A stretch of DNA of 64,000 nucleotides from an uncultured Candidatus Saccharibacteria bacterium (GCA_964652615.1 CAZZAT010000002.1:7296-71295); one strand, 5' to 3'; shown: positions 3,111-51,799, counted from the first letter of the stretch. Notes: a model not told the origin generated them from the sequence alone. Numbers and translations are program-made.

Positions 3111-3635
3111 ATGGCTGAAGGTTCTAATTCATCGTACGGTTCCAAGATCGTCGCCATCATTACGACAGGGTTGATTGTCGTCGGCCTTATCGCTGCACTC
3201 GGATGGTATGTTCTGCCATTCATGTACAACGAAAGGATTCCGTTTGAGTCCGAAGCGGAGACTTCTTCCGTGCAGACTGCAACAGAAGCTTCAACATCTC
3301 CTGTCGTTGTTGTGCAGGTACCTCAACCACCGCAAGCTACAGTGTCCGCTCGGCAAGAAGTCAGAACAGCCTTCGCAGGCAACTCTGGCAATGCTGCTGT
3401 AGAAATGCAGCTTGGTGAACACTTGGGGAGCGGCGAAGTGCGTGCGTCCGATGTCGGAATCGACGTAGCAGGAACCATCGTCGACACGGGAACCGGTTAC
3501 CGCCACTACGGTCAGCCGGTTCGCCGTCCCAATGGCACGGTCTGTCGATCTCTGCCGTCAGGAGAAAGACAATGCGTTCCGGGGGTTTGCACTGCAGACC
3601 CTCAGTCAGGCCGACAAGTGTGCCGACCGACGTGA
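3111..3635 (+). CDS. Hypothetical membrane-anchored protein with a Cys-rich C-terminus
   Basis: SD AAGGAGGG, an N-terminal TM helix, and a C-terminal region with 6 Cys (CRSLPSGERQCVPGVCTADPQSGRQVCRPT). Confidence 0.6.
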   Translation: MAEGSNSSYGSKIVAIITTGLIVVGLIAALGWYVLPFMYNERIPFESEAETSSVQTATEASTSPVVVVQVPQPPQATVSARQEVRTAFAGNSGNAAVEMQLGEHLGSGEVRASDVGIDVAGTIVDTGTGYRHYGQPVRRPNGTVCRSLPSGERQCVPGVCTADPQSGRQVCRPT

Positions 3636-3650
3636 AGACACCTTAACTAA

Positions 3651-3686
3651 GGGCCAGAACACACGACGTGTTCTGGCCCTTTCTGT
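3651..3686 (+). terminator. Intrinsic terminator (12-bp stem)
   Basis: gggccagaacac-acgac-gtgttctggccc followed by tttctgt. Confidence 0.65.
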
Positions 3687-3691
3687 ACCTC

Positions 3692-3720
3692 TTGACATAT
3701 GTTTGCTAATAGTTTACAAT
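3692..3720 (+). promoter_or_regulatory. Near-consensus sigma70-type promoter
   Basis: TTGACA (3692-3697), a 17-nt spacer, then TACAAT (3715-3720). It lies about 105 nt upstream of the 3826 start, with a hairpin-rich leader in between. Confidence 0.5.
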
Positions 3721-3825
3721 ACTCTTTGTGTGGGAAGCTGTTTGCTTAGGAACGAAACGAGGCGTTTCCCAAGCAGTCAGCTCTCCGCTGGGAGAGTGTG
3801 TACAACAGAATGAAAGGAGGGGGCG

Positions 3826-4704
3826 ATGCTGAAGAAGCTCACCCTTATTCTGCTTGCGTTCGCGGGGATTACTTCTGCGACGCTTGCACCGGCAAACGCC
3901 GAGATTACGTGGACGACATGGGGGGAAGCCCCGTACGCTTCGTCGTACGACGAAGCGGTCAGGCGCCTCCCTGACGCGCTGCGTACTCTGAACATTCCGG
4001 AGTCTGTAAGGACTCTCTTTCTGGAAGAGGTGCGCCGCAATCCGCAAGGAGCGCGTGTGTATCTGACGCCAGGAAACCGCTTCACAGCAATGATGTCGGG
4101 TGGGCGTGCTCCGCACGCAATGCAAGACGTTGTTGTTGGACGCAATCCGGTTCGCCGGGGGGCTGTCCAAGCGGCTGAGGCACGCGAGTGGCGTGTGGAA
4201 TATCAGGGCCAGATCTATATCTTGGTTTTGCCGGAAATCTGTTTTAACTGGGCGTGGCGTCAAGAACCACGTCCGCAGGAGATTCCTGTTGAAGAACCAT
4301 GTGCGGTCGTCACGCTGACGATTGAGCAGGGACGAGGACAACTGCTTTTCGGCGGTCTCTCGCCCACAGCGTCGCCCCCGTCACGTTGTTTTGCTGTGAA
4401 GCAAGGCAGTGGTGAATGGGAAGCGCTTCCAGGCGGATGTATCGAATGCGTCCGCTGGCAACCGGTCTTAGCGAGACTTCCCGAATCTGCGGCTGCGGAC
4501 AGAAATGTCAGCATGCAAAGCAGAATCGTGATTCGCGCAACAACGGTACAAGTCAGAGTCCCGGTTTGGTTTGAATCCCACCACTTGGGTTTCTACTTGC
4601 TCGCGGAAGATGGCTTGTGTAGTTGGCTCGTTGTACAACCAACGGACTGGCGCTCGCATGCGTTCAGCTTCAGAGATTGGAGATGGCGGCCGCGAGGCCA
4701 CTAA
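3826..4704 (+). CDS. Secreted hypothetical protein
   Basis: SD AAAGGAGGGGG and a cleavable-looking signal peptide (MLKKLTLILLAFAGITSATLAPANA); no known domain recognised. Confidence 0.6.
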   Translation: MLKKLTLILLAFAGITSATLAPANAEITWTTWGEAPYASSYDEAVRRLPDALRTLNIPESVRTLFLEEVRRNPQGARVYLTPGNRFTAMMSGGRAPHAMQDVVVGRNPVRRGAVQAAEAREWRVEYQGQIYILVLPEICFNWAWRQEPRPQEIPVEEPCAVVTLTIEQGRGQLLFGGLSPTASPPSRCFAVKQGSGEWEALPGGCIECVRWQPVLARLPESAAADRNVSMQSRIVIRATTVQVRVPVWFESHHLGFYLLAEDGLCSWLVVQPTDWRSHAFSFRDWRWRPRGH

Positions 4705-4801
4705 ATCCCGTGTGGGACGACAGCGCATGCTGCTGTCGTCCCCCACGCTCTTTTTTGTACGGGCGTCCATTAATAGTAGTCGCACCGTTTATTAAAAAAT
4801 T

Positions 4802-6133
4802 ATGAACACCATTACTACCACTATGAAAAGTCCAATACTCGGCTATTCCGGTCTCTTTGGCATGCTTGTAGCGCTTGCGCTTGGCGTAGCGTTTGCTTTC
4901 GCGTCCGGTCTTGCAACCCCGCAACCTGCAAACGCGTACATCGCCGACTACGGTGATTGTTACGATTGTGGCGGATGGGAACAGGGCTACGACACGTACA
5001 TCCCGTACGACGACTATGGTTACGGATGGGAACAGGGCTACGACACGTACATCCCGTACGATGATTATGGCTACTATTGGGAGCAGGGATACGACACCTA
5101 CATTCCGTACGATGATTACGGGTACGACTACTACGACTACGGGTATTACGATGATTCGTACTACTACGACTACACCGACTACTACGCGTACGACTACTAT
5201 GACTACGGGTACTACGATTCGTACGACTACGACTGGTACTACGACTACGACTATGATTACGGCTGCTACAGCGGCTGCAATCCGCCCACCTTCGACTATT
5301 GTTCGAACATCCCAGGCAACCAGCCTGCAGGCTACAACTGCTACCCAGACAACGGCTGCCATAACCACTGCAACCCTCCGCACGACGAGTGTTCCAACAT
5401 TCCTGGCAACCAGCCTGATGGCTATGACTGCTACCCTGACCACGACACGGAACCCGTTTGTACGCTCTCTGCTGACGATAAGAACCTAGAGGAAGGGGAC
5501 TCAACAAAGCTTCGCTGGACGAGCGATAATGCAACGTCTGCAAGCCTTACCTCTTTCGGTTCTGTATCAACGGACGGCACTAAAACCGTATCGCCAACGT
5601 CTGATAAGACGTACACCCTTACGGTGCGCGACAATGATGGCGACACTGATACGTGTTCTGTAACCATTCGTGTCGAGGAAGAGGATGAAGATGAGGAGGA
5701 ACCATGGTGCCGCCTCACCGCATCTGACTCTCGTGTTGATGAAGGCGATCGCATTACCCTTGAATGGGATACGCGAAACGCAGACTACGCTTCTATCAAT
5801 CAGGGCATTGGCCGTGTTGATGAAGATGGCGGCGAAGAGCGCTTCACTATGGATGATGACGACATCACCTTCCGCATGACGGTTCGCAATAGCGACGGCG
5901 ACGAGGATACGTGTTCAACCACGGTTCGCGTTGACGAAGAGAACGATTTCTCTTCAGTCTCGTTCGAAGGTGAGCCGGTAAACAACCCTCCTGTGGTGTA
6001 CCTCTCGTCGCTGCCATACACGGGTATCGAAGACCTTTCACCTTCTATGATTGGCTTCCTCGCAACCCTTCTTGCCCTTATGGGTATGGGCGGCTACTAC
6101 TTCTTCGTGAAGCGTAAGCAGGTTATTGCCTAA
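4802..6133 (+). CDS. LPxTG-type cell-wall-anchored surface protein with a Tyr/Asp-rich repeat region
   Basis: A signal peptide; three tandem 17-aa repeats (GWEQGYDTYIPYDDYGY) followed by a long Y/D low-complexity tract; two Cys repeats (CNPPxxDxCSNIPGNQPxGYxCYPD); two approximately 80-aa Ig-like repeats; and a C-terminal LPYTG sorting signal with a hydrophobic segment and a KRK tail. Confidence 0.75.
   Translation: MNTITTTMKSPILGYSGLFGMLVALALGVAFAFASGLATPQPANAYIADYGDCYDCGGWEQGYDTYIPYDDYGYGWEQGYDTYIPYDDYGYYWEQGYDTYIPYDDYGYDYYDYGYYDDSYYYDYTDYYAYDYYDYGYYDSYDYDWYYDYDYDYGCYSGCNPPTFDYCSNIPGNQPAGYNCYPDNGCHNHCNPPHDECSNIPGNQPDGYDCYPDHDTEPVCTLSADDKNLEEGDSTKLRWTSDNATSASLTSFGSVSTDGTKTVSPTSDKTYTLTVRDNDGDTDTCSVTIRVEEEDEDEEEPWCRLTASDSRVDEGDRITLEWDTRNADYASINQGIGRVDEDGGEERFTMDDDDITFRMTVRNSDGDEDTCSTTVRVDEENDFSSVSFEGEPVNNPPVVYLSSLPYTGIEDLSPSMIGFLATLLALMGMGGYYFFVKRKQVIA
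4973..5125 (+). repeat. Three tandem 51-nt repeats inside the surface-protein gene
   Basis: Units at 4973-5023, 5024-5074 and 5075-5125 are near-identical (ggatgggaacagggctacgacacgtacatcccgtacga...). Confidence 0.85.
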
Positions 6134-11000: not shown

Positions 11001-12491
11001 GCGGGCAGAACCTTCAATACGCCGTGCAAGATCAATAATTTCCTTCACATCATCATCTTCTTGGTAGAGCTGCTTCAACTCTTCTTCCATCGTAAGCGCG
11101 CGGTCAATAGTCATAGGGAATCCTTGAGAGCCAAGGGGAATGAGCTTTGCAATGCGATCTCCCGTGCCGTATGCGTGTCCCAAAGCGCGCGCAACGTCGC
11201 GCACTGCCGCTCGCGCAAGCATGGTTCCAAAGGTGCCTATCTGCGCAACGTGGTCTTCACCATACTTTCTTTTTGCGTACGCAATCATCTCGTCGCGCCT
11301 ATCGTCGGCGAAGTCCATGTCGATGTCGGGCGCTGACGGACGCTCGGGGTTCAAGAAGCGCTCAAACGGCAGCTTGTATTTCATCGGGTCTACGTTGGTA
11401 ATGCGGGCAAGATAGGTAACTAGCGATCCTGCAACCGAGCCGCGAATGGTGGTTAGGATGTGGTTTTCGTGAGCGAAGTTGAGAAGGTCGGATACAACAA
11501 GGAAGTAAGGCGCATAACCCTTTTGCTTGATGACCGAGAGCTCGTATTCAATGCGTTTTTCAACTTCCGGTGTCTTCTCCATGCCGCGTGCAGACAATCC
11601 TGCATAGGCTTTTGCCCGAAGTTCTTCGTCGTGGTCGCTAAATCCTTCAGAGACCGCAAGCGCAGGGAACACCCATTTGCCAAGTTCAAATTCAAGAGTG
11701 CAGCGCTCTGCTATTTCTCCTGAACGGTCGACTGCCTCTCCCATATCTTTGAACCATGCGCGCATATTCTTTTCGGATACAAACGAGAAGTCTTCCTTTT
11801 CGTTGTATCCTTCGCTTCCTTGCTGGATGCGCCGCAATACCGCACATGCTTCGCGGTCATCAGGGGAGAGGTAGTACACATCATGCTGCGCAACGAGCGG
11901 CACGCCGCTTTCTTGCGAGAGCTTCTTAATCTGTTCCATCTTTTGCGCGTGCCCTTCTACCGATGGGTGGTGCGTAATTTCAAGGAAGACATTTTCTTTT
12001 CCGAAGATGCTTTGCCAATGAGCAAGAGCGGCCGCAGCTCCTTTTGCGTCGCCTCGTGAAAGCAATTGTGACGTGTCTCCTGCAAAAGAAGGAATGAGCG
12101 CAATGAGTCCTTTCGCATGTTTTTGCAGAAGCTCGCGGTCCATGCGCGGGCGCTCAAAAAAGCCATCGGTATACGAAGCAGTCACAAGCGCAAGCAAGTT
12201 CTTATACCCTTCCTGATTTTCAACAAGAAGCACGAGGCGCGAGCGCTTTTCATCTCGGTCGTGCACTAATCGTGATGCGGGAGCGATATAGGCATCAACA
12301 CCAAGCACTGCTTTAATGCCCGCCTTCTTCGCTTCTTTATAAAACTCAATTGCGCCATGCAGGTTGCCTTCATCGGTTAGGGCAAGCGCTTCCATGCCTT
12401 CCTTTTTTGCAGCCTCGACAAGCTCAGGCACTTTCGGAAGGGCTTTTAAGAAAGAGTAGTGGCTGTGGGTGTGTAGGTGAACGAATGCCAT
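8073..12491 (-). CDS. dnaE: DNA polymerase III alpha subunit (DnaE) interrupted by an in-frame intein
   Basis: An N-terminal PHP domain (MAFVHLHTHSHYSF), a polymerase core and a C-terminal OB fold. The conserved GFNK|SHAASY motif is split by a 427-aa insertion. Confidence 0.9.
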   Translation of the reverse strand: MAFVHLHTHSHYSFLKALPKVPELVEAAKKEGMEALALTDEGNLHGAIEFYKEAKKAGIKAVLGVDAYIAPASRLVHDRDEKRSRLVLLVENQEGYKNLLALVTASYTDGFFERPRMDRELLQKHAKGLIALIPSFAGDTSQLLSRGDAKGAAAALAHWQSIFGKENVFLEITHHPSVEGHAQKMEQIKKLSQESGVPLVAQHDVYYLSPDDREACAVLRRIQQGSEGYNEKEDFSFVSEKNMRAWFKDMGEAVDRSGEIAERCTLEFELGKWVFPALAVSEGFSDHDEELRAKAYAGLSARGMEKTPEVEKRIEYELSVIKQKGYAPYFLVVSDLLNFAHENHILTTIRGSVAGSLVTYLARITNVDPMKYKLPFERFLNPERPSAPDIDMDFADDRRDEMIAYAKRKYGEDHVAQIGTFGTMLARAAVRDVARALGHAYGTGDRIAKLIPLGSQGFPMTIDRALTMEEELKQLYQEDDDVKEIIDLARRIEGSARHTGVHAAGVVISPTPLTEWTSLQTDQKTGKLITQYDMHSIEDAGLLKFDFLGIKNLAILADSVERVRETRGIVIDIENVPLDDEKTFAMLARGETEGTFQLNGSGMTRYLKELRPTTIHDINAMVALYRPGPIETIPQYIERKRNPKLITYMDERMKDYLDASYGLLVYQDDVLLTSITLGGYSWLQADMLRKAMGKKIPEVMEAEREKLISGFVEHGKLPQKRAEELWKLIEPFAAYGFNKCLTGDTCIYNPKTGSRTSLKTLIETKGKVPVLALSKGQKLVEGQGSWVRENGVKRVFRLTTRSGRTIRATDNHPLLTFAGWRPLGELSAGARIAVPRHLPEPTESCAAPAHEAAALGYLLSEGNLCHPHGLYMYSTQENEIADFSRAALCFPGTQVTLNRSKAAISAYVGRRTQKEQNGMLVWAERLGIRGKRATEKEIPDSVLTWNNDSLALMLGKMWQGDGAISLKNQQVFYATSSKHLAHDVQHVLLRLSILSTIHRKQFWYRGSLRIGYTVTVTGIENLTRFEKTAGAHLIGTKRDSLALLVRLCSVRTNARGRGTADTVPAQILEHIRAEAARQGVPIAELARCTNLSERLFYEDTRKRGYTRAVLEKTAVALSSKTLAEHARSDVFWDEIRSIEPDGEEMTYDLSVSVLQNFIANDIIVHNSHAASYGKVAYQTSYMKANYPVEYMAALLTADAGDVEKIAVLAAECERLSIPVLPPDVNESRSTFTIVDAGTKIRFGLSSIKNFGEGIAESIMQERERGPFASLSEFLVRIGSKNLNKKSLESLIKCGALDALGERSHLIAHIETLLTFHRDATAPQAQDSLFGAVAPPTLTLPSADSVTSLIDKLAWEKELLGIYVSGHPLDAHAEKSSKAGTTIAALLEEPVVGMTLILPVLITEARAILTKGGEKMAFLKLEDKTGSIEAVAFPRLFKEHAKLLSAGNCMLIKAKVSSRNGEISLALENVKPL
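8994..10274 (-). mobile_element. Intein (427 aa) with LAGLIDADG-like homing endonuclease domain in dnaE
   Basis: Spans aa 740-1166 of DnaE. It starts with Cys1 (CLTGDTCIY, block A), has a TxxH block B (TDNH), LAGLIDADG-like motifs (LGYLLSEGNL and LALMLGKMWQGDGAI), and ends in VHN followed by a Ser +1 extein residue. Codons verified: 10272-10274 revcomp tgc (Cys) and 8994-8996 revcomp aac (Asn). Confidence 0.8.
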
Positions 12492-12511
12492 ACCTTCAGT
12501 ATACTTTTTCC

Positions 12512-13105
12512 ATGAAATATCTGCTCGGTGTGGATGAGGCAGGCAGAGGACCGCTTGCGGGCCCTGTTGCCGTGGGGGTTGTTGCGGTTCAAGAAGGCTT
12601 TGACATCCTTGCTGCGTTTCCTGGCCTAAACGACTCTAAAAAGCTCTCCGAAAAGAAACGCGAAGCATTGTATGAACTATTGCTTGTAGAAGGTAAGAGG
12701 GGAACTGTGCGCGCAACGGTATGCTTTGGAAGCGAGAAGACTATCGATGAGCGGGGCATTGCATACGCTGTCTTTAGCGCGCTCTCGCGCGGCGTACGTT
12801 CGCTCGCACCTCGACCTGAAGAAGTGAAGATAGTTCTTGATGGCTCACTTCGCGCTCCGAAAGCGTATGCGCAAGAAACTATTATCGGAGGCGACGCTTC
12901 TGTACCTGCCATCATGCTTGCCTCTGTTGCGGCAAAAGTTGCGCGCGACCGTCTCATGCACAAACTTTCAGCGGCATATCCGCAGTATGGATTTGAGACG
13001 CACAAAGGGTATGGGACCAAGGCGCACTTTGCCGCTATTGAAGAACACGGGCTCTCTCCAATACACAGAAGAAGTTTCGTACATCTGGAAGAGAAGGGAA
13101 GATAG
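12512..13105 (+). CDS. rnhB: Ribonuclease HII
   Basis: MKYLLGVDEAGRGPLAGPV is the RNase HII signature; the ATG at 12512 lies downstream of the longer listed ORF and is divergent from dnaE. Confidence 0.85.
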   Translation: MKYLLGVDEAGRGPLAGPVAVGVVAVQEGFDILAAFPGLNDSKKLSEKKREALYELLLVEGKRGTVRATVCFGSEKTIDERGIAYAVFSALSRGVRSLAPRPEEVKIVLDGSLRAPKAYAQETIIGGDASVPAIMLASVAAKVARDRLMHKLSAAYPQYGFETHKGYGTKAHFAAIEEHGLSPIHRRSFVHLEEKGR

Positions 13106-13145
13106 GCGTATACTGCACGCTTTGTTCTTTTTGGGAGAAGTTTCC

Positions 13146-13406
13146 GTGCCTGAAAGCTACTACCAGCGGCGTGCCCGCATGCGCAAGGAGCTTGAAAGCA
13201 AAGGGGTGCCCTGCGCTTCGTGTCCGAAGTTCGCTCTTGTTACAAGACGCCACATGGTATTTTGTGAAGTAAACGCAGGTTCAGGGGATTCGCGGGTACC
13301 CTCTGAAATTAGCCTCATACAGGCAAAAGAGTGTCCAGGAGCAGAGCTTCGTGCTCTCTTTCTTGGCGCTCCCGCCCACTACAAAAGCCGCTCAGGGTCC
13401 TCCTGA
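13146..13406 (+). CDS. Hypothetical small protein (86 aa) with Cys residues (CASC...C...EC)
   Basis: A GTG preceded by GGGAGAAG; the stop lies inside a terminator hairpin; it is the in-frame tail of the listed ORF 12837-13406. Weak call. Confidence 0.25.
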   Translation: MPESYYQRRARMRKELESKGVPCASCPKFALVTRRHMVFCEVNAGSGDSRVPSEISLIQAKECPGAELRALFLGAPAHYKSRSGSS

Positions 13407-13425
13407 GCGGTTCTTCTTTGCTTTT
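13388..13425 (+). terminator. Intrinsic terminator
   Basis: ccgctcagg-gtcct-cctgagcgg followed by ttcttctttgctttt. Confidence 0.5.
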
Positions 13426-13460
13426 GGACACGAGAAAGGCTCTGTGGTAAGGTAGCCCTC

Positions 13461-13814
13461 ATGTCCGTACGAATGCGCCACACCAGCTCGCATACGAGAA
13501 ACCGCCGAAGCCACCATGCTTTGAAGAACCGCGTTATCTTGAAAAACGAGGACGGTACGTCACGCCTTCCACACCGCATCGACGAAGCTACCGGCATGTA
13601 CCGCGGCAAGCAGATTGTCGAAAAACGCATCGTCAAGGAAAAGAAGAAGGATCATGAGAAGCGCCTCGCAGAGCACAAGCATGAGCACCCTGAAGGCGAA
13701 AAGGCCCCTATTCATACCGAAAAGGTTGAGGATGCTCCAAAGAAAGCTGGCGTTCTCGGTCGCGTCATGAAAGACAGAGCTCGCTCACGAAGCGGCATGG
13801 GCGGAGGAGCGTAA
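13461..13814 (+). CDS. rpmF: Ribosomal protein bL32 with a long Lys/Glu-rich C-terminal extension
   Basis: N-terminus MSVRMRHTSSHTRNRRSHHALK and the HRIDEATGMYRGKQIV motif match bL32; a KKKDHEKRLAEHKHEHPEGEK tail follows. Confidence 0.8.
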   Translation: MSVRMRHTSSHTRNRRSHHALKNRVILKNEDGTSRLPHRIDEATGMYRGKQIVEKRIVKEKKKDHEKRLAEHKHEHPEGEKAPIHTEKVEDAPKKAGVLGRVMKDRARSRSGMGGGA

Positions 13815-37757: not shown

Positions 37758-38837
37758 ATGCAAACAGCACCCGTACGAAACCTACACAAAACCATGCGCG
37801 TCACAGATGAAATCCTTGAACGGTACCGCACGCAAAGCGCGGCGTTCATGTCGCCCGACCAAGCCGGCGCCCGCCGGTTCTACCGCTCGCAGCACCGCAC
37901 CGAAATAGCGGTGTTGAAGTGCATGGACGGCAGGCTCAACTTGGCGCTCATGACGAATACGCCGCCCGGCATTCTCTCGCCGTTTCGCACGATGGGAGGA
38001 AAGTTCAACATGGGGTGGCCGTGGTTTGGCGACCTCATCGATGAATGGGTGAAGCATGCGTGGGAGAAGCAGCGCAGCGCGGTCATTCTGGTGACCTACC
38101 ACTTTTCGCGCTCCCATAATTCGCATCTCGGATGCAAAGGATGGGGGTACGACCAAGCGGCTGCACAGGATGCGGCGCATGCGCTCGTGAACGACATTGG
38201 GCGCATCTATGGCGTCGGGCACGATGGCGTTCGCGCTATCGTAGTCGGTATTGAAACGGATGAAGACGCACTCGTTTTTCACGGAAATGGAACGCTCGAC
38301 TTGGCACAAGAGGCGGACACCGCTGAATTTGAGCTTCTCGAGAAGTTTCGCGTTCTTTTCCCTGGCATGGGACTTCAAGTTCTTTCCGATGTGTTTGAAC
38401 TCGTGAAAGGCAATATTGCGCATATCGCCGAGATTCGCGCCAAAAAGCGCGAACCTATCGACATGGACCATCGCGAAAACATCATCGGGGTGGGCCGCGG
38501 TTTCGATTCGCTCCATATGCCCAACCGAGCGCTCATCATCGGCCCCTTCGATCATGGGTGGCCAAACGAAGTGGCAGTCGCAGGAAAGATTGTTAAAAGC
38601 AATCTTGAAGCGGGCCGCATCAACGTCGAGGACGGCTTCCTTTTGCTGTGCTCGTCTGCGTTTCGCAAGGACCGCGGCACGGGCCTTGAACGGCACCGCT
38701 CTGAATTCCGAGCGAAGGAAATTGCGAAGTACGCTCAAAAGGCGCTTACCGAGGCAGTTCCCGATCTTACATTCGATGTCGTTATCGGCACTGTCGATAT
38801 GGATACTCGCGAACTCTACGTTCTCGAGCGGTCATAG
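37758..38837 (+). CDS. Hypothetical protein (359 aa) with a CxDxR ... HxxC motif pair
   Basis: VLKCMDGR at aa 52-59 and SHLGCKG at aa 122-128 resemble the zinc-site spacing of beta-carbonic anhydrase, but overall similarity is not established. Confidence 0.5.
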   Translation: MQTAPVRNLHKTMRVTDEILERYRTQSAAFMSPDQAGARRFYRSQHRTEIAVLKCMDGRLNLALMTNTPPGILSPFRTMGGKFNMGWPWFGDLIDEWVKHAWEKQRSAVILVTYHFSRSHNSHLGCKGWGYDQAAAQDAAHALVNDIGRIYGVGHDGVRAIVVGIETDEDALVFHGNGTLDLAQEADTAEFELLEKFRVLFPGMGLQVLSDVFELVKGNIAHIAEIRAKKREPIDMDHRENIIGVGRGFDSLHMPNRALIIGPFDHGWPNEVAVAGKIVKSNLEAGRINVEDGFLLLCSSAFRKDRGTGLERHRSEFRAKEIAKYAQKALTEAVPDLTFDVVIGTVDMDTRELYVLERS

Positions 38838-44573: not shown

Positions 44574-44909
44574 TTAATAGCCGCCGCCGTAGCCGCCGCG
44601 ATCATTACCGTAACCACCGCGGTTACCGTAGCCGCCTCCCTGACGGGGAGGACGCTCGCCCTGTGGGCGTGCAAGGGAAACCGAGAGCGAACGCCCATCG
44701 AAGTCCTTACCGTCCCAACGGTCGATAGCCGCCTGCGCCGAGGCCTCATCAGCCATTTCGACGAAGCCGAATCCGCGTGAGCGGTTCGTCATGCGGTCCA
44801 TAATAATGCTTGCGGACGTAACCTGTCCTGCCTCTTCAAAGGCAGTGCGAAGCTGGTCCTCGGTCGTGCTGTAGGGAATACCGCCGACGTAGAGTTTTGT
44901 GTTAGCCAT
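44574..44909 (-). CDS. RRM-type RNA-binding protein with a Gly/Arg/Tyr-rich tail
   Basis: RNP-2 LYVGGI, RNP-1 RGFGFVEM, and a C-terminal GGYGN repeat region. Confidence 0.85.
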   Translation of the reverse strand: MANTKLYVGGIPYSTTEDQLRTAFEEAGQVTSASIIMDRMTNRSRGFGFVEMADEASAQAAIDRWDGKDFDGRSLSVSLARPQGERPPRQGGGYGNRGGYGNDRGGYGGGY

Positions 44910-45388: not shown

Positions 45389-47779
45389 TTACATCCCCCG
45401 AATCATATCCTTTTCAATATCTGCAAACGTACCACCTACTTTCTTTCCCGGATTCAAGATATTCAAAGGATCAAAGATACGCTTCGTCTCTTCAAAGAGA
45501 GCCATCATATCCGGACCAAACATATGGGGCAGATAGGGCGTTCGTATGATGCCGTCATTGTGCTCTCCAGTGGTTGAGCCGCCATACTCCATCACCAACT
45601 CATATACGCGCGGGGAAAGTTCGAGGATAATTCTATGCGACTCTTCCTTTGCAAGATCCATAAGCGGGATGATGTGGAAGTTGCCGTTGCCGATATGGCC
45701 TGCAATGGTGTAGATGAGATCGTACTCGGCAAGGAGTTTGTTTAGGCGCGGCAGAAACTCGGGATAACTGTCTGGCGGTACAACAAAGTCATCGATAAAA
45801 GGGGCAGCGTATAAGCCCTTTAGGTTCTTGCGAAGCAGCGAGAAGCTCTCCCGTCGCACTATCCAGTACTTTTCTGCACCTGCCTCATTCTTTTTGACGC
45901 TCGTAGGAAGTCCCATATCGGCAAGCGCTGCTTTTGCTTCTTCCGCCTTGCGTACCGCCTCTTCAGGCGTATCTTCGGAGAACTCTGCCATGAGAACGAG
46001 CTTTGGTACGCCGCCCTGAAGCGCCATCATAACTTCTGGAATAAAAGAAATACCAAGGCGTGCGGCGCGTACAAAGCCCATCTGCGAGAGCATCTGCGGC
46101 AAGTACTTTAGGGCAAGCGAGAAAGTATGGTCGTCATAGGATTCAAATGATTCAGGATTTGATTTTAAGACCCTGCGTACAATTTCCGGCAAGGGCGCAA
46201 GGTCTTTCAAGAAGATGACGAGCATGGCGCGCGATGGTTGTGGCGTCACCAGTTTCAAGGTCATAGAGGTGGTGAGTGCAAGCGTTCCTTGCGCACCACA
46301 CAGGAGCTTCGCAAGATTGAAGGTTCCGTTCTCAACGTCAAAGACATTCCAGAGCGCATAGCCCGCAGAGTTCTTTGAGACGGTAGGTCGATGTGCCTCT
46401 ATGACCTCGCGATTCTTTACGATAAGGTCGCTCATCCTGCGATAGATATCACCCTCAAGGGTAGGGAGCTTCTTCTTTTCAAGAAGCTCGTCTGGCCCAA
46501 GCTCTCCAAAGGTTGCAAGCGAACCGTCTGAAAGCACCACCTCTGTTGAGACGACATAGTTCTCGGTCTTGCCGTATTCAAGGGTCCGCTCTCCGCCTGA
46601 ATTGTTGTTGAATATGCCTCCCATCGCAGCAATAGAGCGCGAAGCAGGGTAGGAGGGGAGGATGAGGTTTTTAGCGAGCGTTGCTTTCTCAAAGTCTCGG
46701 TAGTAGACCCCTGGTTCGGTTGTTGCCTGTCCTTTTTCAATCGTCCCAATATGGTTCATATACTTCGTAAACACGGCAACAACCGAACGGGTCAAAGGAC
46801 CGCCGCTCATATCAGTACCTGCGCTTCGTGCTGTTATCGACACTTCTTCTCCAGCACTCTTTGCGTCATGTATCTTTTTCACAAGCGCTCCCACTTCCTC
46901 CTTGTTCTTTGGAAACACCACAAGAGAAGGCGTGCGCTCAAACACGCTCGTATCGCGCGCGTATTTCTTGCGCACCTCAAGAGCATCTTCTGCTTCAATG
47001 CCAGCTTCTTGAAGCAAGGAACGAAGCGGGCTGCCGATAAGCTCCTCGATAAGTGCAGCGGTCTCTTCGGGGCCTTTAACCGCATGCGTTGTGATGCCGG
47101 TTGTCTTTACGATTTCGTCATTGCCGCCTGGAAAGAGAGCATCTCCCGTGTAGAGCATTTCAGAAACAGGGATGCCAGTCATTTTCGAAAGCTCCTCTAC
47201 GCCATACGCTTTGGTCATTCCTTCCTTTGTTATATCTATCGAACTCATTGCATTTACGCGTACCGAGAACCCTGGAAGCGCCTTTCGAAGTATCTTTGCA
47301 AGCGGTTCGCGCTTCTTCTTGTCAGGATCCCATGTTTGTTTTTCTTCAGGAGGAGCTTCTTGTCCCAACCCCGAGAACGTAATCTGTGCACCGCGATCTT
47401 CAATGCGCTCACCCCATACCTTTTCAGGGGGCGTATCCATGCCCGTTTTTTTGAGTCCGTCATCAAGAGCGGTAAGCACCTTTTCGCGCTCCTGTTTGGT
47501 AAAGCGGTGCGTATAGACGGTTTTCCATCCAGAGCCCGTGTACTGCAGGCACTCCGCAGCACTTACGGGGAAGAGATAGAGTTTTTCAAAGCGCGCAGTT
47601 TTCGGTATGGCAGAGATGAGCTGTGTTTCAATTTGCTCCCAAGAACCTCCGGTCATCACTGCGACCGGCATCTTTTCAAGAAGGCGGGCAAGCAAAGCGC
47701 CCATGTCTTTTTCAACAGGGGACTTGCTCTTTGCAAGCGTTCCATCAAGATCAAATATTGCTATGCGCGGCTTTTCCAT
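45389..47779 (-). CDS. Fusion protein: eukaryotic-type phosphomannomutase (HAD) N-terminal domain joined to an FAD-linked oxidase (GlcD/D-LDH-like)
   Basis: At the N-terminus, IAIFDLDGTLA and YTGDALFPGGNDEIV match PMM-family HAD motifs. At the C-terminus there is a PCMH-type FAD-binding domain (VVFPKNKEEVGALVKKIHDA...ARSAGTDMSGGPL) plus an FAD-oxidase C-terminal domain. The start was moved to M41. Confidence 0.7.
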   Translation of the reverse strand: MEKPRIAIFDLDGTLAKSKSPVEKDMGALLARLLEKMPVAVMTGGSWEQIETQLISAIPKTARFEKLYLFPVSAAECLQYTGSGWKTVYTHRFTKQEREKVLTALDDGLKKTGMDTPPEKVWGERIEDRGAQITFSGLGQEAPPEEKQTWDPDKKKREPLAKILRKALPGFSVRVNAMSSIDITKEGMTKAYGVEELSKMTGIPVSEMLYTGDALFPGGNDEIVKTTGITTHAVKGPEETAALIEELIGSPLRSLLQEAGIEAEDALEVRKKYARDTSVFERTPSLVVFPKNKEEVGALVKKIHDAKSAGEEVSITARSAGTDMSGGPLTRSVVAVFTKYMNHIGTIEKGQATTEPGVYYRDFEKATLAKNLILPSYPASRSIAAMGGIFNNNSGGERTLEYGKTENYVVSTEVVLSDGSLATFGELGPDELLEKKKLPTLEGDIYRRMSDLIVKNREVIEAHRPTVSKNSAGYALWNVFDVENGTFNLAKLLCGAQGTLALTTSMTLKLVTPQPSRAMLVIFLKDLAPLPEIVRRVLKSNPESFESYDDHTFSLALKYLPQMLSQMGFVRAARLGISFIPEVMMALQGGVPKLVLMAEFSEDTPEEAVRKAEEAKAALADMGLPTSVKKNEAGAEKYWIVRRESFSLLRKNLKGLYAAPFIDDFVVPPDSYPEFLPRLNKLLAEYDLIYTIAGHIGNGNFHIIPLMDLAKEESHRIILELSPRVYELVMEYGGSTTGEHNDGIIRTPYLPHMFGPDMMALFEETKRIFDPLNILNPGKKVGGTFADIEKDMIRGM

Positions 47780-47781
47780 AG

Positions 47782-49701
47782 CTAGTTCCAGGTAAGTGCT
47801 TTCATGATGCGCGAAAGAGAGGCAGTTGCAACGCCAACCACTTTGTCTGCACCTCCGTAGTACATAAAGAGGGTATCGCCACGAAGTACGAGGCCGCACG
47901 GAAAGACAACGTTTCCAATCTCACCCACTTTCTCGTAGTCAGTTTCAGGCTCAAATATTGGGTCTGCGCTTCGGGCAAGTACGGTGGTGCCGTGCTCATC
48001 AAGGAGTGCCGCACCCACGCGATAGCGGGAGCGATGTGAGACGCCATGATAGAGCATGAGCCAGCCGCCCTTCACTTTAACGGGCGGCGCTGCAATACCC
48101 ACCTTCGCTGCGTCCCAGAGCCCCTCTCGTGGTCCCATAATTTCAATACACTTTGAGACGCGCTTTCCAGAATGGAGATCAGGAAGCACATCTGCGCAAA
48201 TGCGCCTTGATACGCGGTGATACAGAAGATAGCCATCTTCCCGTTTCTCTGGCAGGAGCGCCAAGTCTTTATCATCAACATCATCCGGCGTCACAAGAAG
48301 CGGCTCCGTCCACTTGTCGAACTCTTTATTGCGGAACTCTTCGAGAGAGAGCGACGTAATGGCGCCAATAGGGGCATGCACGCCATCATAGGCGGTATAC
48401 GTCATATAGATGCGATCATCGATGACAACGGTGCGCGGATCCTCACACCCTGAATTGCCGTCCGGTTTTCCTTGCTTCATCTCAAAAGGAGCGCGCGGTC
48501 CATAGATAGGTACAGAAAGCCGCTCACTAATCTGGAGCCCATCTTCGCTTCGTGCATAGCCAACAGTGGAAGTATTCGGGTTGTCCATCGCTCTATAGAA
48601 AATATGTACGGAACCATCGAGCTCAAACGCTGCAGGATTAAAGACCAGCTTTTCTTCAAAGGTATTTTCAGGCTGCGGAGAGAGTATAGGGTTTCCGGGG
48701 AAGCGGACAAACAAAGGATCTTCTTTTGCAGTGAGTGCTTCAAGCAAGTCCGGCAAATGAAGTGCGGCCCGTGCGCATGTGGTATCGGCTGCGCCATAGT
48801 AGAGATCGAGCGTGTCTCCGCGCAGAAGCGCTCCGGAAGGGAAGACGATGTTTGGGATAAGGCCGAAGCGCTCATACACTTCTTCAGCTACCATGAAGGG
48901 GTAGGTTCGACTCTTTAAGATGCGCGGGTCCTCTAGATCAAGAAGAAGCGCCTCAACGCCAAACATACGCTCCTTTTCGTTGTAGTAGCGCTGGGTATAG
49001 GAATAGAGGAGAAGCCAGCCTTCATCTGTCTTTACGGGCGGCGCCCCTATCTCTACATGGTCATCATCGCTGCGGCGCAAGTTCGGCAGCGCATGCTCGC
49101 TCAAGTGCTCGTGCCACTCTCGCCAGAAGTCATGGTTCCAGAAATCTTCCATGTTTTTGACGCGCGCAATGCCAATGGTTGGACGCGGATGCTCTGGCGT
49201 GAAATCGGTATGCACTGTTACGAGCGCAACATACTCGCCATTAATCTTTTCTGGAAACAAAGCAAACGCTTTTGCATTAAAGGGAGTAAGCAGGTGGCGC
49301 TCATCAAAGTCTTCGCCGTTATGGGAAATAGCGAGCGCTGCCTTAATGTTGTCTGGTCCGTACGGGTGTCCGCCAAGAGCTGTGTAGGAAAGATACGTGA
49401 TGCCATCGATGATGGTTGCGCGCGGATCTTCGCACCCAAACGCTTCCCAGTCGTGCATAGGCGCTATGACCTGCCGATGGTGGGAGAAGTGCGTACCGTC
49501 TCTGGACTCTGCCATGCCTATCGTCGATTCAGGAGAAAAGGGCGCGATGATAGCCTGCGGGTTTGCAAGCGCGCGATAGTACATGCGCAGCTTTCCGTGC
49601 TCTTTCACCACTGACGGATTGAATGCAGCAAGCGCTTCCCATGGATGCTCGCGCCGTGGCGCAAGGAGCGGGTTTTCAGGATCTCGTTTGACGATAAACA
49701 T
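47782..49701 (-). CDS. Glycoside hydrolase family 130 protein with two tandem GH130 domains
   Basis: Two copies of the approximately 300-aa GH130 (DUF377) fold, each with AFNP...YRA, CEDPR and YYGGAD motifs. Confidence 0.8.
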   Translation of the reverse strand: MFIVKRDPENPLLAPRREHPWEALAAFNPSVVKEHGKLRMYYRALANPQAIIAPFSPESTIGMAESRDGTHFSHHRQVIAPMHDWEAFGCEDPRATIIDGITYLSYTALGGHPYGPDNIKAALAISHNGEDFDERHLLTPFNAKAFALFPEKINGEYVALVTVHTDFTPEHPRPTIGIARVKNMEDFWNHDFWREWHEHLSEHALPNLRRSDDDHVEIGAPPVKTDEGWLLLYSYTQRYYNEKERMFGVEALLLDLEDPRILKSRTYPFMVAEEVYERFGLIPNIVFPSGALLRGDTLDLYYGAADTTCARAALHLPDLLEALTAKEDPLFVRFPGNPILSPQPENTFEEKLVFNPAAFELDGSVHIFYRAMDNPNTSTVGYARSEDGLQISERLSVPIYGPRAPFEMKQGKPDGNSGCEDPRTVVIDDRIYMTYTAYDGVHAPIGAITSLSLEEFRNKEFDKWTEPLLVTPDDVDDKDLALLPEKREDGYLLYHRVSRRICADVLPDLHSGKRVSKCIEIMGPREGLWDAAKVGIAAPPVKVKGGWLMLYHGVSHRSRYRVGAALLDEHGTTVLARSADPIFEPETDYEKVGEIGNVVFPCGLVLRGDTLFMYYGGADKVVGVATASLSRIMKALTWN

Positions 49702-50856: not shown

Positions 50857-51216
50857 TTAGGCAGCGCGCCCGAAGTCATCTTCGAGCCGCTCGATATCTT
50901 CTTCATTAAACTCACCAAACGCTATCTCAAGAACCGTAATGCCTTCAGGTCCTCCGGTGAGCCTATGCGCCATCCCTATCTTCACCAGTGTCTCATCACC
51001 CACCTGCAATGTACGTGCTTCACCCTCAAGCTCAAGCGTGCCGCTTCCGCGTATAACGCGCCAGAACTCTTCGCGTCCTCTGTGTCGCTGCAGCGAGAAG
51101 CGTTTATCCGGCGCAACATGCAGAAACTTCACGGTGCACTGCTCATTCTCTACAAAGCGCTCAAACGAACCCCACGGGCGCTCCTCTTTGTAATAGGTAT
51201 CTAAAGGGTGGGCCAT
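50857..51216 (-). CDS. Mannose-6-phosphate isomerase type II cupin domain protein
   Basis: ERPWGSFE, KVKFLHVAPDKRFSLQRHRGREEFWRV, GMAHRL and LEIAFGEFNEEDIERLEDDFGR match the PMI C-terminal cupin. The start is at M89, after AGGAGG. Confidence 0.75.
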   Translation of the reverse strand: MAHPLDTYYKEERPWGSFERFVENEQCTVKFLHVAPDKRFSLQRHRGREEFWRVIRGSGTLELEGEARTLQVGDETLVKIGMAHRLTGGPEGITVLEIAFGEFNEEDIERLEDDFGRAA

Positions 51217-51325
51217 GCTCCTCCTATAATACCGCATCCTCTCCCTATACTTCCCGTGGATTGCTCCATGAAAGTGAAAGGTATATAAAGGTCTCACACC
51301 TGACGCTAGCACTAGGAGGTTGGGT

Positions 51326-51799
51326 ATGGAAGAACGCACGAAGAAAGCAGCGACAGCTGTTGCTCGGGCACTTCTTGAAGATTCCGAGTTGAGTTTTTCG
51401 GCGGCTTGCGTAGCTGCAGAAATTGCATCTGGCACCCTGAAGCGATATGTAAAGCACGACACACCGGAAACCTTCCTCAAGAAGTGGGGAGGATCACTTG
51501 CTACTCCGGAACGGGTGAAGCTTGTTCTTCAAGGAACGTTGCGCAGACTGCACGAGATTGCAAGGCGAGCCGCTAAAGCAAAGGAGCGCGAAGAAGCGCG
51601 AGCGGCGGCAAAAGAAATACTAGTACCGCTGCCTAAGCCGCAGCGAGCGCTCGGAAGCCATGAGTGTCAGTGGGTGGTCAATCCGAAAGGTCCGGACTAC
51701 TACTGCACAGCAGCGGTTATGGGTTTGTACTGCGTGAAGCATGATCTGATAGCGCAACAGCAGGCCGAGCGTCGATTTAAGATTCTACGCACGGCGTAA
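51326..51799 (+). CDS. Hypothetical protein (157 aa)
   Basis: AGGAGG 6 nt before the ATG; a C-terminal Cys cluster (HECQWVV...YYCTAAVMGLYCVKHD). Confidence 0.5.
   Translation: MEERTKKAATAVARALLEDSELSFSAACVAAEIASGTLKRYVKHDTPETFLKKWGGSLATPERVKLVLQGTLRRLHEIARRAAKAKEREEARAAAKEILVPLPKPQRALGSHECQWVVNPKGPDYYCTAAVMGLYCVKHDLIAQQQAERRFKILRTA

Follow-up and report, generated by a model that had tools for sequence, protein, structure and literature searches.

Fusion of a predicted phosphomannomutase-like HAD enzyme to a predicted FAD-dependent D-2-hydroxyacid dehydrogenase in Patescibacteria

A minus-strand gene in a window of 64,000 nucleotides (nt) from an uncultured Candidatus Saccharibacteria bacterium (GCA_964652615.1, CAZZAT010000002.1:7296-71295; positions below are counted from the first letter of this window) encodes a protein whose amino-terminal half resembles the phosphomannomutases (PMMs) of the HAD superfamily and whose carboxy-terminal half resembles oxidases dependent on flavin adenine dinucleotide (FAD). 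The host is an ultra-small bacterium of the Patescibacteria. We consider, with a probability of roughly 0.6, that this protein is a bifunctional polypeptide, i.e., two self-contained enzymes on one chain, which became joined when the stop codon separating two abutting genes was lost. As relatives of the gene show repeated joins of this kind, two ordinary enzymes on one chain are the most likely interpretation, and not a new pathway. The domain architecture is new and is built from known parts, both halves being members of well-known enzyme families. A literature search retrieved no description of the fusion, nor of this oxidase in Patescibacteria, and the protein is not discussed by Nelson and Stegen (2015), the source of the C7867-001 genome.

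The fused gene and its junction

On the minus strand, the open reading frame (ORF) runs without interruption over positions 45389..47899, and the ATG at 47779 lies 2 nt past the TAG of the upstream gene, which codes for a double GH130 protein (TGGAACTAGCTATGGAAAAG). The protein begins with MEKPRIAIFDLDGTL, and the gene ends with TAA TAA at 45389. Four Pfam families are recognized, PMM (PF03332), Hydrolase_3, FAD_binding_4, and FAD-oxidase_C. A preliminary description of this stretch, made from the DNA alone, had proposed a covalent fusion of a PMM of approximately 270 amino acids (aa) to an FAD-linked oxidase of approximately 520 aa and had named a stop or frameshift between the domains as one way in which it might fail. 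The fusion stands, as the window sequence contains neither, and the sizes are close to the 250 aa of the mutase half, 12 aa of the join, and 534 aa of the oxidase half found here. An identical 796-aa protein (P0001) is present in the NCBI record and in two independent Logan assemblies (SRR15237817 and SRR15237806), and the same architecture occurs in 48 further clusters formed at 90% identity, whose members are 771-871 aa long and 54-77% identical to the window protein. All named clusters with this architecture are from Parcubacteria or Patescibacteria, their database names being "HAD-IIB family hydrolase," "phosphomannomutase," and "oxygen-dependent FAD-containing oxidoreductase." In a set of 1.84 billion representatives (50% identity), both domains are found in only one (P0046) among the best 150 matches. 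The fusion architecture is confined to one narrow lineage.

In the closest relative (locus L087, GCA_049653065.1), the mutase (3257..4012, 251 aa) and the oxidase (4020..5666, 548 aa; oxidase domain 79% identical to that of the window) are encoded by separate genes. The gene order, i.e., GH130, double GH130, mutase, oxidase, RRM, DUF1360, MTS, is common to both genomes, but where the window has an in-frame join, L087 has a stop codon, followed by 7 nt and then the ATG of the oxidase. The L087 junction reads ...IEEMFMHV, stop, ttacccc, ATG ALTEELKQKLGDGV..., and its counterpart in the window is ...IEELIGSPLRSLLQEAGIEAED..., which gives ...AALIEELIGS followed by PLRSLLQEAGIEAEDALEVRKKYARDTSVF at the protein level. 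The distance from GGND to DTS in the window protein, 56 aa, equals the sum of two natural termini. From comparison of both junctions we therefore infer that the window fusion is an end-to-end join of natural termini. An added linker, a stop, or a frameshift is absent between the halves. Production of a separate oxidase from an in-frame internal start was rejected, since no ATG exists between residue 1 and the TDMSGG of the FAD domain, and none at the join. The join is modeled as helical by AlphaFold (AF2), with a predicted local distance difference test score (pLDDT) of 85-91. Fused proteins possess two junction types, a direct one with a GGND-to-DTS distance of 56-66 aa and one with a linker rich in P, S, T, and A, for which this distance is 73-101 aa. 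Coordinates of the gene, its parts, and the other genes of its operon are given in Table 1.

Table 1. The fused gene, its parts, and the upstream genes of the operon (window positions).
Feature	Position	Strand	Basis
Fused gene, 796 aa	45389..47779	(-)	Single uninterrupted ORF
Amino-terminal half, residues 1-250, predicted HAD-IIB phosphohexomutase of eukaryotic-PMM/PgmH type	47030..47779	(-)	Pfam, TIGR01484, 4BND match, Foldseek
Join, residues 251-262 (PLRSLLQEAGIE)	46994..47029	(-)	Junction DNA and protein compared with unfused L087
Carboxy-terminal half (residues 263-796) and stop codon, predicted FAD-/metal-dependent D-2-hydroxyacid dehydrogenase	45389..46993	(-)	Pfam, PDB matches, Foldseek, residue mapping
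Double GH130, 639 aa, beta-1,2-mannobiose/1,2-beta-oligomannan phosphorylase-like	47782..49701	(-)	Pfam GH130 319.9 bits, 2 stretches
GH130, 382 aa, amino-terminal transmembrane helix	49705..50853	(-)	Pfam GH130 124 bits; PDB 9FJ8, E 3e-40
Cupin mannose-6-phosphate isomerase domain, 119 aa, first gene of the operon	50857..51216	(-)	MannoseP_isomer 68.4 bits; carboxy-terminal isomerase part of TIGR01479

Assignment of the two halves

The two motifs on which the PMM assignment had originally been based are present in the protein, DLDGTL at residues 10-15 and GDALFPGGNDEI at residues 212-223. Asp10 as nucleophile, Asp12 as general acid/base, and Thr14 constitute HAD motif I (DxDxT, within FDLDGTL) and are invariant in 47 fused and 39 stand-alone homologs, Thr43 (Ser or Thr in homologs), Lys190, Asp213, Asn220, and Asp221 represent motifs II-IV, and Arg129, Ser136, Gln140, and Lys147 are located in the cap. 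Pfam PMM matches residues 120-248 with 34.1 bits (cut-off 22.4) and TIGR01484 (HAD-SF-IIB) residues 8-222 with 46.4 bits (cut-off 41.8). The possibility of a generic Cof-type HAD, raised in the preliminary description as an objection to its own assignment, is rejected, as TIGR00099 (Cof) scores 32.4 bits, far below its cut-off of 137, and matches residues 166-214 alone. Two other candidates were discarded as well. No model for a mannosyl-phosphoglycerate, sucrose-phosphate, or trehalose-phosphate phosphatase was matched in NCBIfam, which argues against a sugar phosphatase of the HAD type, and the PMM-type cap together with the position of stand-alone orthologs directly after GH130 genes argues against a phosphoglycolate or phospholactate phosphatase that would feed a glycolate or lactate oxidase, an attractive idea for a fusion of HAD and GlcD domains.

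The only PDB sequence matches of the mutase half are PMMs and the PMM-like alpha-phosphoglucomutase (alpha-PGM) PgmH from Lactococcus lactis (4BND). Residues 4-247 align colinearly to PMM1, PMM2, and other PMM chains. The match to 4BND (residues 5-248, E 2.5e-38) reaches 135 bits, whereas PMMs score 23-58 bits, the eukaryotic ones with E values of 9e-15 and weaker. The AF2 model of the window protein (pLDDT 88.6) matches 4BND in Foldseek with a TMt of 0.88 and a root-mean-square deviation of 2.3 Å at 32% identity; identities of the mutase half to 4BND are about 32-38%. With residue numbers of PMM2 taken from the alignment to 2AMY, R129 and S136 are the conserved counterparts of R123 and S130. 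At the positions of the cap arginines R134 and R141, the window protein has Q140 and K147, which it shares with 4BND and which are invariant in 86 homologs. The mutase half therefore belongs to the PMM-like clade and, within it, to the PgmH branch. The earlier assignment to the PMM type holds in so far as the cut-offs of PF03332 and TIGR01484 are passed, but the nearest characterized relative is an alpha-PGM.

With PgmH, described as an "atypical alpha-PGM related to eukaryotic PMMs," the window mutase has in common a colinear match over the full length, the fold, the DxDxT and GDxxxPGGND motifs, and Gln and Lys at the two cap positions. Unlike the window mutase, which is operon-linked to mannoside phosphorylases and fused to an oxidase, PgmH is a stand-alone protein of 253 aa without a gene link to GH130 or to a mannose-6-phosphate isomerase (PMI); it is said to be glucose-specific. 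The HAD-IIB C2B-cap fold and the catalytic motifs are also common to PMM1 and PMM2 (PF03332; 2AMY, 2FUC, 6I5X), apart from the weaker scores and the replaced arginines. PMM1 and PMM2 are eukaryotic and are not known to occur in fusion with an FAD oxidase. In analogy to PMM and PgmH, Asp10 would be phosphorylated by a hexose-1,6-bisphosphate and would transfer this phosphate to O6 of mannose-1-phosphate (Man-1-P), the bisphosphate intermediate would flip, and Asp10 would regain the C1 phosphate.

A role in converting Man-1-P to mannose-6-phosphate (Man-6-P), as in PMM1 and PMM2, fits the mutase half and is predicted from the operon context. The fused gene is the last of four packed minus-strand genes, coding for a cupin PMI, a GH130 protein, the double GH130 protein, and the fusion, with spacers of 2-3 nt. 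The cassette is also found upstream of the fused gene in the related loci L001/L002, L003/L004, L008, L018, and others, the double GH130 gene directly precedes the mutase in at least 23 related loci, and in at least 15 loci with an unfused oxidase a stand-alone mutase directly follows the double GH130 gene. Characterized GH130 phosphorylases all release alpha-Man-1-P, from which PMM and then PMI lead into glycolysis (PMC4264767, PMC4599007). The operon lacks exactly one activity of this route, phosphomannomutase, and the fusion's amino-terminal half is therefore the candidate. In the proposed sequence, beta-1,2-mannoside and inorganic phosphate would be converted by GH130 to alpha-Man-1-P, by the mutase half to Man-6-P, and by the cupin isomerase to fructose-6-phosphate; the route could run in reverse, and the mutase half may also act on glucose-1-phosphate (Glc-1-P). 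If the gene context is a reliable guide, the mutase of this beta-1,2-mannoside phosphorylase operon of Paceibacteria would be a HAD of eukaryotic/PgmH type and not of the usual ManB/AlgC type.

That the mutase half is instead a glucose-specific alpha-PGM like PgmH, interconverting Glc-1-P and glucose-6-phosphate for glycogen or UDP-glucose metabolism, with the GH130 link being incidental, is unlikely in our view, although not to be taken lightly. It would agree with 4BND being by far the best match in sequence and fold, with Gln and Lys in place of the PMM arginines, and with the existence of mutase-oxidase pairs without GH130 in seven loci. However, the identity to 4BND is merely about 32-38%, and an incidental link is difficult to reconcile with the position of the mutase, fused or stand-alone, directly after the double GH130 gene in so many loci, with its packing next to a Man-6-P isomerase cupin, and with the product of the characterized GH130 phosphorylases. 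Moreover, HAD-type PMMs commonly take both sugars, e.g., HAD5 (PMC8808168).

In the carboxy-terminal half, FAD_binding_4 (residues 284-424, 86.9 bits) and FAD-oxidase_C (residues 516-779, 151.8 bits) are separated by an insert of about 90 aa. PDB sequence matches comprise mouse LDHD, human D2HGDH, and LctD, a D-lactate dehydrogenase (D-LDH) that bears the name "glycolate oxidase" in its entry. In Foldseek, LDHD, LctD, and D2HGDH are found with TMt values of 0.80-0.84, the best fold matches being those of the D-LDH type (LDHD 0.82-0.84). Pfam domains, PDB matches, and fold thus agree with the initial placement of this half among PCMH/VAO-type FAD enzymes of the GlcD/D-LDH class. The GlcD equivalogs of NCBIfam are missed (TIGR00387, 190.8 bits against a cut-off of 567.9; NF008408, 119 against 897). 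The best NCBIfam match is the amino-terminal half of NF049975, the YdiJ equivalog, also missed, with 229 bits against a cut-off of 1350 and positions 34-539 of 1018 matched. The alignment with E. coli YdiJ, a D-2-hydroxyglutarate dehydrogenase, is colinear over 548 aa, the insert region included, with an identity of 27%, and the nearest relatives outside the lineage are YdiJ-like proteins of 930-1000 aa. In contrast to YdiJ, the window protein ends before the carboxy-terminal iron-sulfur (Fe-S, CCG) half, which is absent as a whole. LDHD (8JDE), LctD from A. woodii (7QH2_C), and GlcD share both Pfam domains and the Arg/His/His/Glu/His site with the window oxidase, but identities are only about 20-22%, the insert is a feature of the window protein, and no partner of the electron-transferring flavoprotein, cytochrome, or Fe-S type is evident for the window oxidase.

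Residues were mapped onto human D2HGDH following Yang 2021 (PMC7801405). Arg642, His695, His702, Glu739, and His740 correspond to R386 (carboxylate Arg), H434 and H441 (metal His), E475 (metal Glu), and H476 (catalytic His) of D2HGDH and are invariant in 78 sequences. The residues which bind the distal carboxylate in D2HGDH, T390, K401, Y432, and N443, are replaced by F646, I662, A693, and I704, forming an apolar pocket; D-LDH and GlcD have small or hydrophobic residues at these four positions (PMC7801405). As judged from these residues, the oxidase half is a predicted D-2-hydroxyacid dehydrogenase that depends on a metal and on FAD and whose pocket is apolar. Such a pocket points to D-lactate as the simplest guess for a substrate, or to a similar small or aliphatic D-2-hydroxyacid. 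D-2-hydroxyglutarate, which the YdiJ match might suggest, was rejected as a substrate, as the distal binders of human D2HGDH are missing and the corresponding Arg of YdiJ is Ile704 here. In the proposed reaction, His695, His702, and Glu739 would hold a divalent metal and Arg642 would bind the carboxylate, His740 would deprotonate the 2-hydroxyl, and hydride would pass to FAD, yielding a 2-ketoacid.

The fusion draws attention to an FAD dehydrogenase which is YdiJ-like and highly conserved and which lacks the Fe-S half. Organisms carrying this oxidase are reported to be without FAD synthase (PMC4508563). In Parcubacteria C7867-001 (L001), the fused gene is directly followed, on the other strand, by genes for cytochrome bd oxidase subunits I and II (11156..13569), which are absent at the corresponding place in the window. 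They could indicate a path for the electrons of the FAD dehydrogenase or be there by coincidence; the C7867-001 genome is without genes for quinone synthesis (Nelson and Stegen, 2015). Another variant of the oxidase, in locus L012 (3253..5133), has an amino-terminal extension of about 85 aa containing a hydrophobic stretch resembling a transmembrane segment. Its gene directly follows the cupin isomerase gene with no GH130 or mutase gene between them and looks like a cassette deletion variant.

Fusion states among relatives and their interpretation

A scan of GTDB species representatives gave 80 loci, all of them Patescibacteria-like; at least 550 stretches encode a relative of the query. Window proteins were mapped onto the loci by tblastn and the ORFs were then checked, which proved necessary, as tblastn coverage over-counts fusions and 10 of 15 apparent cases are adjacent but separate genes. 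Four states can be distinguished. The gene is fused in the window and in L001, L003, L008, and L018. Mutase and oxidase are adjacent but separate in 10 GTDB loci, four of them with an in-frame stop and one with an ATGA overlap. In about 15 loci, the oxidase is preceded on its own strand, at a distance of 2-6 kb, by a cassette of GH130, double GH130, and mutase genes; the space between them is taken up by unrelated genes of the other strand, which code for a PIF1-like helicase, pyruvate kinase, and small membrane proteins. In the rest of the loci, the oxidase has no mutase within 10 kb. In 35 of the 80 loci, the mutase lies upstream of the oxidase within 10 kb, both genes being on one strand. 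At the syntenic site of the window, L005/L006 carry a 549-aa oxidase (71% identity) without the cassette, flanked by ABC transporter genes on one side and by RRM, DUF1360, MTS, bPH, and HisRS genes on the other. The oxidase is the resident gene of the lineage.

Among the adjacent pairs, those of L009 (10742), L011 (10745), L013 (10763/10781), and L015 (10757) are in the same frame, separated by one or two stops and 20-100 nt, and are one point mutation or read-through event short of fusion. Fusions of neighboring genes are common in the Paceibacteria group. Other examples are a DedA/VTT domain with the HAD mutase (L013, 9407..10765, 452 aa), His_Phos_1 with the mutase (492 aa), the mutase with a Gmad2 Ig-like domain (508 aa), and a Pyr_redox_2 flavoprotein with the FAD oxidase (950 aa), the last three being represented by P0377, P0316, and P0285. 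The Pyr_redox_2 fusion could be a pointer to a redox partner of the oxidase.

Fused and unfused states were placed on a neighbor-joining (NJ) tree of the oxidase domain (143 sequences) by Fitch parsimony. The tree requires 10 changes (9-14 over 200 bootstraps), whereas at least 33 are required when tip labels are shuffled. Fusion is therefore heritable and yet was switched repeatedly. In the scenario we favor, the mutase gene came to adjoin the oxidase gene upstream in a compact genome, with 7 nt between them or an ATGA overlap, and loss of the stop codon then joined both genes end to end, an event which would have happened, or been reversed, several times. Living relatives represent all stages, i.e., genes that lie 2-6 kb apart, are adjacent, overlap by ATGA, or are kept apart by a single in-frame stop, and fusions of both the end-to-end and the linker type. 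As every intermediate of the process survives, the fusion is instructive, and its main value is that of a clean and well-sampled example of how fusions originate in streamlined genomes. It also cautions that a Rosetta-stone fusion is not always evidence of a pathway.

The two halves seem to be unaltered by fusion. Fifteen mutase and nine oxidase positions were compared in fused (47), mutase-only (39), and oxidase-only (31) sequences. They agree throughout, apart from Thr/Ser at position 43 and from positions 693 and 704, at each of which two substitutions occur. The window protein is modeled with a predicted template modeling score (pTM) of 0.78 and an ordered helical join, whereas the long-linker homolog P0040, of the same overall pLDDT (88.1) but with a pTM of 0.68, has a disordered linker (pLDDT 36-38). 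A conserved interface between the two domains is not evident. This comparison, in which the inter-domain arrangement is judged by pTM values only, may hint, if weakly, that a fixed interface between the domains is not required, and cross-talk between the halves is probably absent. The preliminary description had suggested that the fusion might channel a mannose-derived intermediate into an oxidation step or serve regulation. Its idea of mannose as the source is supported by the operon with PMI and GH130 genes, but neither channeling nor a regulatory fusion finds such support. Against either purpose speak relatives in which the oxidase occupies the syntenic site by itself, the separate genes of L087, the coming and going of the fused state on the tree, and catalytic residues that are the same in fused and stand-alone proteins.

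Several points weigh against reading the protein as two merely joined enzymes. Mutase and oxidase genes are adjacent without nearby GH130 or PMI genes in L009, L011, L033, L039, L020, L013, and L015, for which there could be a functional reason, or equally inherited synteny. Retention of the fusion across lineages down to 54% identity means that it does no harm, at the least, and it might even be favored. The ordered join and the pTM of 0.78 of the window model leave room for what may be a real packing interface. The tree is an NJ tree of one protein, and errors of gene calling or sequencing in metagenome-assembled genomes (MAGs) could inflate the number of state changes. Finally, the mannose assignment of the mutase half comes from gene context only, and the functions of all family members considered here are predictions from sequence and models.

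Some of these points would favor the main rival reading, a Rosetta-stone coupling, in which both halves act in one metabolic context and fusion or adjacency was selected for co-expression or physical coupling. In one version, the entry of phosphorolytic hexose phosphate into glycolysis would be combined with the handling of D-lactate or another D-2-hydroxyacid leaving it, e.g., D-lactate from the methylglyoxal bypass under sugar-phosphate overload; in a second one, fermentation balance would be tied to sugar supply. We regard such coupling as doubtful. The mutase is found close upstream of the oxidase in 35 of 80 loci, directly adjacent without the GH130 cassette in the seven loci listed above, and fusions recur and persist, with an ordered join in the window protein. 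Yet the flanking RRM, DUF1360, MTS, and HisRS genes are equally syntenic without a plausible functional link, and therefore inherited synteny explains recurrence and adjacency, too. Where 2-6 kb separate the two genes, unrelated genes of the other strand lie between them, so that they are not co-transcribed there, and in many species the oxidase has no mutase within 10 kb. Fusion leaves the active sites unchanged, and the long-linker clade has a disordered tether and a lower pTM. Also, the hexose phosphate produced by the mutase is chemically unrelated to the 2-hydroxycarboxylate that would be bound by Arg642 and the metal.

We give still less credence to the view that recurrent adjacency and fusion mark a real functional partnership in Paceibacteria, be it a complex or common regulation. 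If it were true, a flavin-dependent oxidation, of D-lactate or of some other D-2-hydroxyacid, would be tied to phosphorolytic sugar entry (Man-1-P/Glc-1-P), e.g., as a redox or overflow valve in organisms without a respiratory chain. Alternatively, the oxidase could act on an unrecognized product of the beta-1,2-mannoside pathway. Very improbable is a version of the regulatory fusion suggested at the outset, with the HAD half turned into a regulator or sensor that would bind a sugar phosphate and gate the oxidase but would no longer be a mutase. Enzyme fusions to ligand-binding relatives do occur elsewhere, but the catalytic and cap residues checked are invariant in the 47 fused proteins and identical to those of the 39 stand-alone mutases, and with an inactive HAD half the operon would be without a phosphomannomutase. 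An artefact, i.e., a sequencing or assembly error (a lost stop or a frameshift) that joined two separate genes in this contig only, can be practically dismissed: one error could mimic a fusion, because genes in very close relatives lie merely 7 nt apart, but the identical protein comes from two independent assemblies in addition to the NCBI record, the junction type is common to three relatives of 76-77% identity (P0002-P0004), and the 48 other clusters are fused as well.

Other genes of the operon and of the window

Both GH130 proteins have the 1,2-beta-oligomannan phosphorylase 9FJ8 and the beta-1,2-mannobiose phosphorylase 7FIP as best matches, and the double GH130 protein reaches 389 bits with NF052550, whose cut-off is 450. 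By inspection, the basic, phosphate-binding positions of 9FJ8 (K-D, the Arg at +18, and Y-H) are kept only in the carboxy-terminal module of the double GH130 protein. As its amino-terminal module has Thr and Y-S at these positions, that module may be hydrolase-like or non-catalytic. The single GH130 protein carries the transmembrane helix MGLFLFYLALAGALTTTGIFLYGVW and has Ser at the position of the +18 Arg. An anchor in the membrane is unusual for GH130 phosphorylases, which are normally cytoplasmic; at the membrane, this protein could act as a synthase or a hydrolase of mannosides. The ORF of the cupin isomerase extends mechanically over 50857..51480 (207 aa, TTG start), whereas homologs are 117 aa long, and the real start is most likely the ATG at 51216 with AGGAGG upstream. 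Promoter-like sites in a promoter scan are at or below the expectation from shuffled sequence, and a terminator scan shows no clear terminator after the fused gene.

Immediately downstream of the fused gene, a small RRM RNA-binding protein with a Gly/Arg-rich tail is encoded (44574..44909, minus strand). With 75-89% identity across nearly all related loci, it is the most conserved neighbor. Many of the loci with Paceibacteria-type synteny, L012, L016, L017, L019, L020, and others, stem from GTDB records titled "uncultured Candidatus Saccharibacteria" or "Bacillota bacterium," and such titles are probably loose or wrong taxonomic labels of MAGs. Farther away in the window (37758..38837, plus strand), a 359-aa protein shows a weak match to CsoSCA_cat (29.8 bits) and 44.6 bits with TIGR02701, far below the cut-off. 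A CsoSCA_cat-like protein is syntenic in a related Paceibacteria genome (L005, 16051..17163), and carboxysome-shell carbonic anhydrase is an odd family for a Patescibacterium.

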